Shown here piece after piece: positions 300-15,458 of a stretch of 19,950 nt of DNA. How positions within the stretch are numbered: position 1 is the stretch's first letter; the number at the start of each line of letters is the position of its first letter. The DNA comes from a virus (lineage: Duplodnaviria > Heunggongvirae > Uroviricota > Caudoviricetes): IMG/VR virus record IMGVR_UViG_2778261164_000003, one strand, 5' to 3'. The position numbers and the translations under genes were made by a program. The notes under the pieces were generated by a model, which searched no databases, was not told the origin of the DNA, and saw nothing but the letters and a program-made list of their open reading frames with translations.

Positions 300-2318
300 T
301 TAATAGCTTTCTTTCAATTCTTTTTTCTCAATCATTTTCACAATATCTAACTCATCCCACTTGACAAACCAATATGTTTGAAGCAGAGATTGCAAATCAT
401 TCTCAATCTCCAGATGACTTCTGTTCAGCTTTGGCTCATAGCTCTTGAGATATTTTCTATATAAAAAACGCCTTGTCTCTATTGAGACAAATGGACATGA
501 CATGACATCCAAAAATAAATGTGCCTTTTCCGATGATTGCAGCAAATCCATATTAGAACTTAATATTTCCTTTATTTCACCCTCTATTATACACTTCAAT
601 TTTCGGAATGATCTTCTGTTTCTAAAATAGAATAGCAGTGAGATTATAGTAAAGTAGTCCAATTTCTTTTTATGTATAACTCCATGAAAAAAACTGTCAC
701 TTATAAGATAATTATCTCCAAAAAAAGTAGCAGCCAAGATTAAATTAACCTTTTCAATTGAAATGAAATCATCAATAAACAGCCCATTATCATTCTCACC
801 AAAATTAATGTTTTCCGCAGCATTCACTAACGTAGTCATAAAAATACTACTATAGTCACTAGATATTTCATTCAAATAGTTATTAACAACAACCATTGTC
901 TTTGATAATTTATAAGATGATGAAACAGTTGGGTTAACACTGAAAAAGAACAACATAATATCGGTTATTGTGAAAATTAAGTCCTTAATCCTTTTTTTTA
1001 CATCTACATCATCTTCATTTTCTTGAACTCGTAATATATCAATTATTGATATTAATCTTTTGGAAAGAGATGATATTATATATGATGAAACATCAGAATA
1101 AGACACTTGATTTTCAATGCATATAGACTTGACATGATTAATTACATATATCTTTAAATCATGCTTACTTCTTATTTTATTTAAAGTAAAGCCACTATCA
1201 CGTTTTTCATACAGTTTAATTTCTAAATTGCGAATTAATTCATTAACTTTGACAATCAAACTTGTCTTGCTAGTGCAAAATGGCCTAGAATACTTCTTAA
1301 GCTTGTTTACATTTAATTGTAGATTATATTCATTTAACTTCACATTAATTATTTTTGTAATAACTTCGGCACTTGACTCACCATTACAAAAAACAATAAA
1401 ATCATCTACATATCTCAATATAACATAATCTTTATTATTAACCCATCCATGTTCACTAAGAAGGCATGACTCAATATTGCAATCAATTCGCTGAAATATT
1501 AATTCTGCAAAAACCCTGCTAAACTCTGAACCAATAGGTATTCCATTTGTTTCATTATTATTGCTACGTTGCATCAGTGTATCTAATTCTTGTCCAAATT
1601 GATTGCTGTGTTTAACATGTTTTTTGATATATGATTTATTTTTTAATGCCCAAGAAACCGAATGCGTATATATGCTATCAAAACAATGTGATACATCTAA
1701 CATCCACATCACCGAGAATCTTTTCTCAAGCTCAATAAACATCTTACTTTGAAATAGTTTATATATCCTGTTGAAACCGCCATAACTAAAATAAGAGGAT
1801 GAATATTTCCTCATTAACTCATCCTTTGTTGTTTCGATATCTTCCCCTTTATATTTTTCCAAAGCATTATTTTCATATAAAAAGAAAGAGTTAGCGACCT
1901 TACGTGGGTAGCGAATAGAAAAATTACTTTTTAAAGTATTTAATGTGATAACGGATGAGTATGTTTTATAAAATTCCGAATAATTAATTTGAGATCTTGG
2001 GTGAATTAAAGAAAGATGTCTTTGGCTAAAGGCATCTTTTACTATACAATAGCCAAATGGGGAGCTTTGTTTCTTCTTTTCTCGGTGGCGATCTGCGACA
2101 CTAATAGAAGAGTCTAAATTAGGGTTAACTATTTTTTTTAAGAAAGAAGAAACCGGAGTAAAATGTAACAAATCATTACAAACTCTATCATATTCTGTTA
2201 AGTTTATATATAAGCCATCATTTGAAAAAATAATTGGACAATCACCGGGCAGTGTATCACATAGTAAAGCCCTGAGATAATCTTTCTTATCAAGTTTAAT
2301 GTTTTTCTTTATAACCAT
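300..2318 (-). CDS. Reverse transcriptase, 672 aa, with long C-terminal extension (second gene of two-RT operon; UG8-like assignment tentative)
   Basis: RT motif A WMLDVSHCFDSI, motif B GIPIGSEFSRVFAELIF, motif C with catalytic YVDD (VILRYVDDFIVF). ATG at 2318 overlaps the upstream gene's stop by 10 nt (ATATGGTTATAA). Very AT-rich. Confidence 0.85.
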   Translation of the reverse strand: MVIKKNIKLDKKDYLRALLCDTLPGDCPIIFSNDGLYINLTEYDRVCNDLLHFTPVSSFLKKIVNPNLDSSISVADRHREKKKQSSPFGYCIVKDAFSQRHLSLIHPRSQINYSEFYKTYSSVITLNTLKSNFSIRYPRKVANSFFLYENNALEKYKGEDIETTKDELMRKYSSSYFSYGGFNRIYKLFQSKMFIELEKRFSVMWMLDVSHCFDSIYTHSVSWALKNKSYIKKHVKHSNQFGQELDTLMQRSNNNETNGIPIGSEFSRVFAELIFQRIDCNIESCLLSEHGWVNNKDYVILRYVDDFIVFCNGESSAEVITKIINVKLNEYNLQLNVNKLKKYSRPFCTSKTSLIVKVNELIRNLEIKLYEKRDSGFTLNKIRSKHDLKIYVINHVKSICIENQVSYSDVSSYIISSLSKRLISIIDILRVQENEDDVDVKKRIKDLIFTITDIMLFFFSVNPTVSSSYKLSKTMVVVNNYLNEISSDYSSIFMTTLVNAAENINFGENDNGLFIDDFISIEKVNLILAATFFGDNYLISDSFFHGVIHKKKLDYFTIISLLFYFRNRRSFRKLKCIIEGEIKEILSSNMDLLQSSEKAHLFLDVMSCPFVSIETRRFLYRKYLKSYEPKLNRSHLEIENDLQSLLQTYWFVKWDELDIVKMIEKKELKESY

Positions 2319-3586
2319 ATTTTTGTAATCTCAGTATAGCGCTTAAAGTTATACTTTCTATATACTCTATCCACAAAGCCTTTTCTAAAACTATTTCTTA
2401 GCAGTTCTTTTTTTTGCTTCAAATTAAAAGGTTTTTTTGCAACACTATTCAAACGCCCAGTATTAGATTGCACACAATATAGCAAAAAGTCATCTAATTT
2501 TTTTAGGGATATGGAGTCAACATCTAACTTCGCATTACTGTAATAAATACCTGTACTTATCTTGCTTTTTTCTAAAGAACTTAACGATTTTATTTTGCGA
2601 TTTAAATCCCTGTTACTAGTCAAAAAAGAAATCCTGTCTAGCAATAGTTTAAAATCACCATTAATATGATAAGAGTAGAAAGACCTAGCTATTCTTGTTT
2701 TAATTTTCTTCAGGCGAGATTTAGATAAATTAACAACAACCTTTCTGTAACAGCTATTAATCTCACCATCTTTGCTCAAAGGTGTGTCTATTATAGAAAA
2801 CGAGTACCCTAGAAAGTCAAATTCATGAAGCAATTTATCCTGTTTATTTAAACCCTTACTTCTCTTTGGTATGCATGGAGATATTTTTAATTTATTTTTA
2901 TTTAAAGCCAATCCCTTTGGTAATACATCTTGTATAAATTCCATAAAGGACGCTTCACATTCACAACCACTTGAAACGATTACCATATCATCTACAAATC
3001 TTGAATAATAAAATACTTCTGGATGCCTATGAATACTATTATCTAATTGTGCCAAGTACAATTCTGATAACATAGGACTAATTTCTAACCCTCTAGGTAA
3101 TCCTTTCGAAGAGTGAAGCCTTTCACACGATTTAAGATACCATTCTAGCAAATTTTTTGTATGTCTAGACAGTCGTGTTTCGTTATGTAAGAGCTGAAAA
3201 AGCTGCGGTAAATCAATTGATTCAAAGAAAGACTTTATATCCAAACGATATATTTTGAATGGAGTACCTTCTTCCAAATAAATTTTAAGCTCACTAATTA
3301 TTGTATTTCGTTGTTTGGGACGAAGCGATTCAAGGCATTTTAAATTTGCATTGCAATGTCTAAGTATTATTTTTTCCTTCAAACATGAAGCAGTGTAAAC
3401 GCAGCGTCCCTTAATATTTAGTTTCTTTACACTCACACCAGAGCGAAAATTCTCATTAGCAATTAAAACGGCATCACTAATTAATGATTCTAACTCAGCA
3501 ACATTATTTTTTTTAAAATAATAAGCCTTCTCACTTTCACTTAAGTTTCGTTTAAGTGCTGCTGAAGTAAACGGCTGACGGTTCAT
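2309..3586 (-). CDS. Reverse transcriptase, 425 aa (first gene of two-RT operon; UG3-like assignment tentative)
   Basis: RT motif A YRLDIKSFFESID, motif B GLPRGLEISPMLSELYL, motif C FVDD (YYSRFVDDMVIV), later FDFLGYSF. ATG at 3586 preceded by GAGGG Shine-Dalgarno. Confidence 0.85.
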   Translation of the reverse strand: MNRQPFTSAALKRNLSESEKAYYFKKNNVAELESLISDAVLIANENFRSGVSVKKLNIKGRCVYTASCLKEKIILRHCNANLKCLESLRPKQRNTIISELKIYLEEGTPFKIYRLDIKSFFESIDLPQLFQLLHNETRLSRHTKNLLEWYLKSCERLHSSKGLPRGLEISPMLSELYLAQLDNSIHRHPEVFYYSRFVDDMVIVSSGCECEASFMEFIQDVLPKGLALNKNKLKISPCIPKRSKGLNKQDKLLHEFDFLGYSFSIIDTPLSKDGEINSCYRKVVVNLSKSRLKKIKTRIARSFYSYHINGDFKLLLDRISFLTSNRDLNRKIKSLSSLEKSKISTGIYYSNAKLDVDSISLKKLDDFLLYCVQSNTGRLNSVAKKPFNLKQKKELLRNSFRKGFVDRVYRKYNFKRYTEITKIWL

Positions 3587-12758: not shown

Positions 12759-12773
12759 GGGAAAACTAGGTGA

Positions 12774-12818
12774 TGGTGCCGATAATAGGAGTCGAACCTA
12801 CGACCTTCGCATTACGAA
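12774..12818 (-). other. Attachment-site core: 3' 45 nt of a tRNA-Thr(CGU) gene, not an intact tRNA
   Basis: Minus strand reads TTCGTAATGCGAAGGTCGTAGGTTCGACTCCTATTATCGGCACCA: anticodon loop with CGT, T-arm GGTTCGACTCC, acceptor 3' half and CCA. It matches my memory of E. coli thrW. The 5' half of the tRNA is absent from the flanking sequence. Confidence 0.7.
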
Positions 12819-13234
12819 TTATAAGAATCCGCTTCTAATTCAAAGCATTACCCCATCAACACTGCGCTCACACGTCCCACCACATCAAAACATGTAAAGC
12901 CTTGCAAGTCATTGCGAGGCCTTATGTGTCTCAGTTTTGTCCCACCTTGTATTACGACTTGCATAGCCAATGAAGATAAATGTGACGACAAACGGCGCAG
13001 CAGTCTTCTTTTCCTTCATACTTTCCCCACCCAGCATGCATACCTTCTACCATAACTGTAGTTAATGTCTGTTATGAGCGAAAAGCGGTCCTTAAATACA
13101 ATTTTCATTGATAACGCCGTCTTGTTGCTATTGAAGACATTATCAACATCATTGTGTTTTTACTTATATTTGAAGGAGGGCTATTCAAGGGATTGCCCCC
13201 TTTTAACAAAAATTCCACCAGAACAGTAGGTCTG

Positions 13235-14929
13235 CTAATTGGTCTCTATAATTGAGCTTAATTCGTTAATGAGCAGGTGAGGGCTCATTTGAGTTAAGTC
13301 ATACTGCCTCCCCAATTTCTCTTGCATTCCTCCTCGTATTTTCTTTAATAAATATTTGCCTTTAATGTTATTAACTGATGTCGGAACTTGGTTTCCAAAT
13401 AATGTTAGGTGTCGAGGGCATGCTTCCAGTCTCCCCTTATATAAATTATATTTAATCACCTCTCTTTTGGATTGAAAATCAGACTGGATGACAACATGAT
13501 TTTGTGCGGCTATATCAGTAATCCATGTTTGTATATCTTGCACAGAAGAGCCTGTAACATGAGATAAATGCTCTATTCTGGTAAAATAACTCTCAATATC
13601 ACTACCTTCAGTAATGAATGGAATGGCGCCACCTCTTTGAATTTCTGCTTTTACTATATCTACTTCTTCATCAGTCATAAAATCGCGGTCACGATGAATT
13701 ATAACCTTGCAATTAGGGGACATTTCCTTAAGAAGGTCAGCAGATACAATTGCTCCTTGCACATTTGTGCATGTTTTGTAGCTATAGACTGCAGTTCTCT
13801 CCATATCAAAACCATTATATTGTAAAAGGGCCTTGAAATATTTTTTATCTCTATCTTCAGTGAGAAATATATTCTCCACAACCCCTTCAGTTACTCTATC
13901 CAAGTCATTTAAAGCTCCTAAATCTAAGAACATTGATATTTTGTCCAAATCCATGCCTTGATTCTGAACATTACCATCTTTCATCCAAATAAAATTTGCC
14001 TCTCCATACAATGAATCAATTATATGTTTGCTATGAGTGGAAAGTATAACTTGAGTTTCTGATTTGTTATTTTCTGATATTAAACTCAATGAGTCAGTGA
14101 GAATATATTGATTATCAGGGTGAAGATGAGAATCCGGTTCATCTAAGAGTAATAATTTAGGTTTGAAATATACTATATATGCAAATATCTGTAATGTTTG
14201 AAGTAATCCAGTTCCCGCCAACTCGATAGGGTAATTTTTCCCACTTGCATTTTCTTTAAAATTAACGGTTAGATAAGTATCTTTATCCTCTTTGAAATCC
14301 ACTTCGATTTCTATATCTGGAAATACAACTTGCAGCATGCTATTGAGATTTACCAAGTGGTTATCTTTGTTCAGATAGTATATGACATTCCTTAAGTATA
14401 AATTTGCATCACCACTTGCCACTCCTCTTCTAACTATTGCTGGCGATTTTAATTCTTCCTTCTGTGAGATACCAGCCAGACCAGGAACATATATACTAAA
14501 GAGATTTTTTTCATCGGTGATTACTGAACCGAAGCCGGTATAATCACCGGTTCTTTCACATGACATATTTCCATGATTTCGTCCCTTAGATATAATTATA
14601 TTGTATTCTAATTGTCGACCAACAAGATCATCATATCCAAAAAGACTCAACACACTTTGATTGCCAGGCGACCTCGAATTCTTATAAGGTTCGCCGTTCT
14701 TTAAAACAGTGAAGTCTGGGGTGATATTATACATTAAAAGTTCAGTAGAGAATGTTTGTTGACTTTGTTGCCGAGCGGCAATAGCTGCGCATACTGAAAA
14801 ATGTATAGCTTGCAGAATACTGCTCTTACCTGAACTATTTGCCCCTACTAATACATTTATATCACTAAGGGTGATTTCTGCTGTGTCAATTTTTTTGAAT
14901 TTACTAACAGACAAAGACTTAATGAACAT
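13235..14929 (-). CDS. OLD-family ATP-dependent nuclease (ABC-type ATPase plus Toprim), standalone class-1 type like phage P2 Old
   Basis: Walker A LVGANSSGKSS, Walker B/H-loop LLLLDEPDSHLHPDNQ and LSTHS; C-terminal Toprim-like NIFLTEDRD and VIIHRDRDF. Length comparable to P2 Old and GajA. No UvrD-like partner follows. Track start 14947 is TTG; ATG at 14929 has an AAGGAA Shine-Dalgarno. Confidence 0.7.
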   Translation of the reverse strand: MFIKSLSVSKFKKIDTAEITLSDINVLVGANSSGKSSILQAIHFSVCAAIAARQQSQQTFSTELLMYNITPDFTVLKNGEPYKNSRSPGNQSVLSLFGYDDLVGRQLEYNIIISKGRNHGNMSCERTGDYTGFGSVITDEKNLFSIYVPGLAGISQKEELKSPAIVRRGVASGDANLYLRNVIYYLNKDNHLVNLNSMLQVVFPDIEIEVDFKEDKDTYLTVNFKENASGKNYPIELAGTGLLQTLQIFAYIVYFKPKLLLLDEPDSHLHPDNQYILTDSLSLISENNKSETQVILSTHSKHIIDSLYGEANFIWMKDGNVQNQGMDLDKISMFLDLGALNDLDRVTEGVVENIFLTEDRDKKYFKALLQYNGFDMERTAVYSYKTCTNVQGAIVSADLLKEMSPNCKVIIHRDRDFMTDEEVDIVKAEIQRGGAIPFITEGSDIESYFTRIEHLSHVTGSSVQDIQTWITDIAAQNHVVIQSDFQSKREVIKYNLYKGRLEACPRHLTLFGNQVPTSVNNIKGKYLLKKIRGGMQEKLGRQYDLTQMSPHLLINELSSIIETN

Positions 14930-14976
14930 TTTCTTTTCCTTTTTCAATGAAAGGTGTAAAACTTTAACTCATCATT

Positions 14977-15261
14977 TTAGTTGTTAACATTCAAAATCAT
15001 AAACTGATTCTCTATTTTACCAATGAATAGCAGTCCTATCAGAGTAAAAATAGTGTTAGATATTTTTCTTACATCTGAATCTGAGAAATATTCGGATTCT
15101 TTATAGCAATTATTCCATATGTCGAGTTCTCTAAAATCATAAGCTAAATGAGCAATTTTTCCCCAATCTTCATTTACTATATGCTCAGCCATTGTAAAAA
15201 AATCACTCTTAGTCGGAATGTCTATTCTCATTGTTACTTGGCCTATTTTTTCATTGCTCAC
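14977..15261 (-). CDS. Possible small ORF upstream of the OLD nuclease (doubtful)
   Basis: 94 codons from a GTG. No convincing Shine-Dalgarno at the GTG or at either internal ATG. May instead be the 5' UTR of the OLD gene. Confidence 0.2.
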   Translation of the reverse strand: MSNEKIGQVTMRIDIPTKSDFFTMAEHIVNEDWGKIAHLAYDFRELDIWNNCYKESEYFSDSDVRKISNTIFTLIGLLFIGKIENQFMILNVNN

Positions 15262-15458
15262 ATATATAACTATATGATATTTATATTAAAACTCCAACAT
15301 TAAGTTTCGGCTTTCTTCAAGTAAACTACATAGCACGATGTAAGCAACTTCCGCTTTTGGCACATAGCAGTCCTAGAGATACTGGCGTAAAGCCATGGAG
15401 GATCGGTGGGAGGAGGTAAAAATCCTCTCATGCAAAAAATACGCAAAATCGATAACAG

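Follow-up and report, generated by a model that had tools for sequence, protein, structure and literature searches.

We identified, at the outer end of a prophage, a gene whose product is probably a single-polypeptide ATPase-nuclease of the OLD architecture that serves as a prophage-borne anti-phage effector. The gene lies in a stretch of viral DNA of 19,950 nucleotides (the window). Its 564-amino-acid product consists of an ABC-type ATPase domain (amino acids 1-325) followed by a 240-amino-acid C-terminal domain that we regard as a putative Toprim-like nuclease (Table 1). Every source annotates the protein merely as "AAA family ATPase". An earlier note, made from the sequence alone, had likened it in size to P2 Old, and the lengths are indeed similar (564 versus 586 amino acids).

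The gene is real and evolves under purifying selection. Comparison with the Klebsiella and JGI alleles gave dN/dS values of 0.11-0.19, and substitutions were in excess at third codon positions (14, 13 and 41 at the first, second and third positions, respectively). The mechanically called open reading frame (ORF) spans 13235..14947 on the minus strand (570 codons) and begins with TTG 14947. Translation probably starts at ATG 14929, with an AGGA 8 nt before it, and yields the 564-amino-acid product. In E. coli H7, PGAP called this same gene, of 1695 nt.

Table 1. Coordinates of the features in the window
Feature	Position	Strand	Details
ATPase-nuclease gene (564 aa)	13235..14929	-	ATG 14929, stop 13235-13237; same CDS in PGAP
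ABC-type (OLD/SMC/RecF-like) ATPase domain, aa 1-325	13955..14929	-	Pfam, hhalign, PDB sequence and Foldseek matches
Walker A/P-loop, G29-ANSSGKS-S37	14819..14845	-	G29, N31, G34, K35, S36 and S37 invariant in 26 homologues
Walker B/D-loop, L259-LLLDEPD-266 (LLLLDEPD)	14132..14155	-	L260-D266 invariant in 26 homologues
C-terminal Toprim-like putative nuclease domain, aa 326-564	13238..13954	-	
Motif 1, L356-T-E358-D359-R-D361	13847..13864	-	C-terminal end of predicted strand beta1 (353-357 in model)
Motif 2, I-H412-R-D414-R-D416-F	13679..13699	-	End of strand beta3 (408-413 in model)
Motif 3, S-D444-I-E446-S-Y448	13586..13603	-	After strand beta4
Orphan small ORF, 94 codons from GTG	14977..15261	-	ATG 15231, common to all alleles, gives 84 aa
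3' fragment of tRNA-Thr, 47 nt	12773..12819	-	Matches part of annotated tRNA-Thr genes at 100% identity
Left 14-nt inverted-repeat arm, TGAGCGAAAAGCGG	13075..13088	.	3' of ATPase gene
Right 14-nt inverted-repeat arm, CCGCTTTTGGCACA	15351..15364	.	5' of small ORF

The N-terminal domain is homologous to the ATPases of OLD proteins. Pfam searches matched AAA_15 (E = 1.5e-28), AAA_21 (E = 1.1e-23) and also SMC_N, and hhalign against the P2 Old family profile returned a probability of 97.7% (E = 1.8e-12). TsOLD (6p74) was the top PDB sequence match of the wider family profile, A4 (E = 4.4e-12). A Foldseek search of the full-length model against the PDB recovered mostly the ATPase, with matches to SMC, PtuA, GajA and OLD heads. 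The top NCBIfam match of the ATPase was MAD3, well under the MAD3 cutoff. [quoted passage not shown] The domain contains an insertion at about amino acids 60-230.

The C-terminal domain is conserved, and its Toprim-like character is recognisable from its predicted fold and motif pattern and not from any sequence model. The predicted fold comprises a four-stranded alpha/beta core and a helical C-terminal region; a conserved Glu stands at the end of beta1 and a DxD at the end of beta3. The domain carries the signature TED...HRDRD...DIE, with its acidic residues spaced by 56 and 30 residues. Seven acidic or His residues did not vary among 26 close members or among 40 distant ones, the latter reaching down to about 23% identity: E358 and D359 in motif 1; H412, D414 and D416 in motif 2, in which the DxD follows the invariant His; and D444 and E446 in motif 3. 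Pfam searches of this domain at E <= 10, which included PF20469 and PF14491, returned a noise-level PIN_10 match and no Toprim, and NCBIfam did not match the nuclease part. PDB searches with phmmer and with profiles matched the ATPase and never the C-terminal domain, and Foldseek with the isolated domain found nothing in the PDB below E = 0.06. We also compared the protein with P2 Old by hhalign, as a single sequence and as two family profiles, one of them a local build from 141 and 116 sequences. All variants confined the alignment to the ATPase halves, and the nuclease domain matched the P2 Old Toprim with a probability of 0.2-0.4%, even with profiles of Neff 6.

The nearest structural neighbour of the C-terminal domain was AriB of PARIS, for which the HMM match was weak (E = 0.005). 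In a few family members the domain matched mad4 (6e-5) and PDC-M38B (5e-4), far under the family cutoffs. The Toprim-like region proposed in the earlier note holds as a conserved domain with a Toprim-like predicted fold and motif pattern, but no sequence model recognises it as Toprim. Likewise, the HMM comparison that the note had suggested, with OLD, GajA and PARIS models, matched the ATPase half but, apart from the weak AriB matches, not the nuclease half. Entries of 250-300 amino acids that might have been a standalone AriB-like C-terminal domain still carry the last residues of the ATPase at their start and are therefore truncated fusions instead of split systems.

Judged by sequence comparison, the ATPase-nuclease belongs to a separate, unnamed and uncatalogued family. 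Clustering at 50% identity divides this family into 572 clusters, and its members come from Pseudomonadota, Bacillota, Cyanobacteria and Bacteroidota. The gene is rare, being present in 3 of the 5,426 complete E. coli genomes, and a search of 50,697 deposited phage genomes found no relative. Relatives were found in a P2/186-like prophage, an ICE, a type I R-M/ParE island and 11 plasmids, and some family members carry accessory fusions, namely an HsdR-type helicase, a UDG or a B3-like DNA-binding domain. As had been claimed, the gene is standalone: none of ten genomic contexts showed a conserved neighbour, be it a helicase, a reverse transcriptase (RT) or another partner. Between its stop at 13235 and the prophage end there is no additional ORF of at least 60 amino acids, and no methyltransferase or other MADS gene lies near it.

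No helicase gene was found within 5 kb on either side of the ATPase-nuclease gene, nor was a GajB/UvrD-like helicase gene found in the window or at related loci; the protein is therefore not Gabija, in agreement with the earlier reading. GajA (class 2 OLD) resembles it in being an ATPase-Toprim fusion of similar size with HMM and fold matches at the ATPase level, but GajA models match ATPase segments only, and GajB, which is adjacent to GajA in Gabija, is absent from all ten contexts. MADS MAD3/MAD4 and the PADLOC candidate PDC-M38A/B are two-gene pairs of an ATPase and a nuclease, whereas the ATPase-nuclease is fused and standalone. Retron-associated OLD proteins (class 3) have an adjacent RT and an msr/msd ncRNA, neither of which lies beside the gene; the nearest RT genes, Drt3a/Drt3b (300-3586), are more than 9 kb away within a separate P4-like satellite.

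The ATPase-nuclease has an OLD-like architecture, but only its context places it in class 1, which the literature defines as a single gene with no helicase and no RT; no separate Toprim gene adjoins it either. The class 1 assignment made earlier is thus correct by that definition but does not extend to the P2 Old sequence family, as PF20469 is absent and only the ATPase halves align. The established class 1 proteins (P2 Old, Thermus scotoductus OLD and Vc OLD) likewise have a homologous ATPase and lack a helicase or RT partner, but the ATPase-nuclease has no PF20469 OLD-like Toprim domain and its nuclease domain shows no profile-level similarity to theirs. Each of the 119 listed relatives of P2 Old carries PF20469, which was found in neither the ATPase-nuclease nor 120 + 17 + 40 members of its family. 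The key residues of Vc OLD (K48/D313/D468/D470) are not collinear with K35/D263/D414/D416 of the ATPase-nuclease, and on this numbering we ruled out that the Vibrio homologues are the published Vc OLD.

In the mechanism we propose, the N-terminal ABC ATPase, probably as a dimer, would bind and hydrolyse ATP and control a C-terminal Toprim-like two-metal nuclease, for which E358/D359, D414/D416 and D444/E446 are the likely metal ligands, with the invariant H412 alongside. The ATPase module would sense infection, whereupon nucleic acid would be cut. Its gene is AT-rich cargo borne by a temperate prophage at its outer end, and the protein would most likely act as an anti-phage abortive-infection or exclusion effector. 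We infer the nuclease activity and its gating by ATP, and the defence role is suggested by location only. DNA nicking or degradation, as by Vc OLD and GajA, is slightly favoured over tRNA cleavage, as by P2 Old and AriB, because relatives carry extra N-terminal modules that appear oriented towards DNA.

Among other explanations, we considered a fused PARIS-type system (class 4 OLD), in which the ATPase would sense an anti-restriction protein such as Ocr and the Toprim would cleave host tRNA, arresting translation. PARIS AriA/AriB also combines an ABC ATPase with a Toprim-type nuclease, often on prophages or satellites, and fused AriAB forms are known; besides the weak AriB HMM matches, the spacing of AriB E26/D88-E90/E122 (62 and 32 residues) resembles that in the ATPase-nuclease, although the latter has HxDxD where AriB has D88-x-E90. 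This explanation is nevertheless unlikely. The AAA_15/AAA_21 ATPase part is present, but Pfam DUF4435 (PF14491) was found in the C-terminal domain of none of 17 + 40 members, even when the threshold was relaxed (E <= 1 for A2 and E <= 0.01 for A4), and the sole DUF4435 match falls within an ATPase region. The PADLOC AriAB model scored 62.8 bits, mainly over the first 66 residues (best stretch 1-66). The PADLOC "AriA" matches have the same lengths as the generic Pfam models AAA_15 (374) and AAA_21 (304) and probably represent those models. The accessory fusions of relatives, moreover, point to DNA. We regard as highly improbable a P2-Old-type class 1 protein that watches over RecBCD and causes cell death once RecBCD is inhibited by a phage (lambda Gam). 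The ATPase-nuclease shares with P2 Old a single gene, similar size, carriage on a prophage, a homologous ATPase and a GDIE-type motif after beta4; the corresponding stretch of P2 Old reads SGDIEAVY, and the local hhalign match of motif 3 to GDIEAVY was non-significant (E = 0.14). Against this, PF20469 and nuclease-domain profile similarity are lacking, and the PADLOC Old model (66 bits) matches best over roughly the first 48 residues. RecBCD-dependent exclusion, presented in the earlier note as a trait of such proteins, turned out to be a property of P2 Old only, which is now reported to act via tRNA cutting; Vc OLD, also class 1, is RecBCD-independent, so that RecBCD dependence of the ATPase-nuclease cannot be assumed.

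The AT-rich, GTG-initiated 94-codon ORF reported upstream of the gene was found as described (GC about 0.35), with no Shine-Dalgarno sequence 5' of either the GTG or the internal ATG 15231. A two-gene system in which its 84/94-amino-acid product would be a small partner (a regulator, antitoxin-like inhibitor or sensor) would agree with several observations. The ORF is intact across four diverged alleles that share 80-89% identity, and it remains open in a stretch of AT-rich DNA whose other two forward frames carry at least eight stop codons each. At all loci examined in the clade of 89-100% identity, namely three arrangements in E. coli, one in Klebsiella and JGI contig L013, it lies beside the ATPase gene. 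We nonetheless consider such a system distinctly unlikely. The ORF does not occur upstream of the relative with 83% identity or of any distant relative; only five clusters, all at least 81% identical, were found among 5.8 billion proteins; its dN/dS was 0.57-1.18, with substitutions even across codon positions (8, 7, 4; 4, 6, 4; and 10, 11, 3); and domain searches gave no match. On these comparisons, the small ORF is an orphan restricted to one lineage, shows no sign of purifying selection and is not a family-wide partner, and the data are compatible with the earlier suggestion of a leader rather than a partner gene. Rfam searches upstream of the ATPase gene returned the BRO-N terminator alone, with no retron ncRNA or structured leader. 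The folding z-score of the upstream region was marginal (-1.9), and promoter-like sites there were no more frequent than in shuffled sequence. Least probable of all is a non-defence role, in which the ABC ATPase would carry a Rossmann-like domain without catalytic function, for regulation or oligomerisation, and would serve DNA repair or chromosome maintenance. Several homologues do sit singly amid housekeeping genes (aconitase; yrdC/serS), Foldseek gave no nuclease match, and an OLD-family ATPase from archaea is reported to have a role outside defence (PMC12796447). By contrast, the seven invariant residues occupy canonical Toprim positions, the distribution is patchy and mobile, and the cargo slot is shared with defence-like genes.

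This slot agrees with the preferred reading of a prophage-borne effector. As the earlier note had placed it, the gene lies at an island boundary, at the prophage end with other defence genes adjoining: PD-T4-3 (E = 3e-140) and HTH/ImmA. The 47-nt tRNA-Thr fragment, in a window with no complete tRNA, is the att repeat at which the prophage end meets the adjacent P4-like satellite. The 14-nt inverted-repeat arms flank a cargo of 2.3 kb, and between these arms the same slot holds at least eight different cargos (at least seven others, AT-rich), including other defence-like genes. The gene is thus a standalone, mobile occupant of a variable cargo slot. Neither an empty cassette site among the 5,426 E. 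coli genomes nor an adjacent-arm hairpin among 185,579 species genomes was found, and the two variable arm positions showed no clean compensatory pairing between arms. A literature search on repeat-bounded prophage cargo slots found nothing relevant.

ATPase-nucleases of the OLD type are a recurrent element of Gabija, PARIS, retrons and P2 Old, but experiments cover few of the standalone (class 1) examples. Annotation that depends on Pfam, NCBIfam and PADLOC models, which recognise the ATPase half only, would probably miss this family. Should the ATPase-nuclease prove protective against phage, it would contribute a compact system of one gene and would indicate that the OLD architecture tolerates a nuclease module far more divergent than current models capture. 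Tentatively, the protein may represent an unrecognised lineage of OLD-like immune nucleases, and it may travel in an undescribed kind of transposase-less cargo cassette. The nuclease domain of such a lineage would have diverged past every current Toprim, DUF4435 and OLD model, and its mechanism may differ, given the invariant His beside the DxD and the DNA-oriented accessory fusions. The cassette would be bounded by 14-nt 5'-TG...CA-3' inverted repeats, insert inside short palindromes, exchange single-gene defence candidates at one prophage-end slot and insert also into chromosomal sites of other Enterobacteriaceae. If the slot is a real mobile unit, it would offer a practical route to new defence genes and could indicate a new route of cassette exchange.

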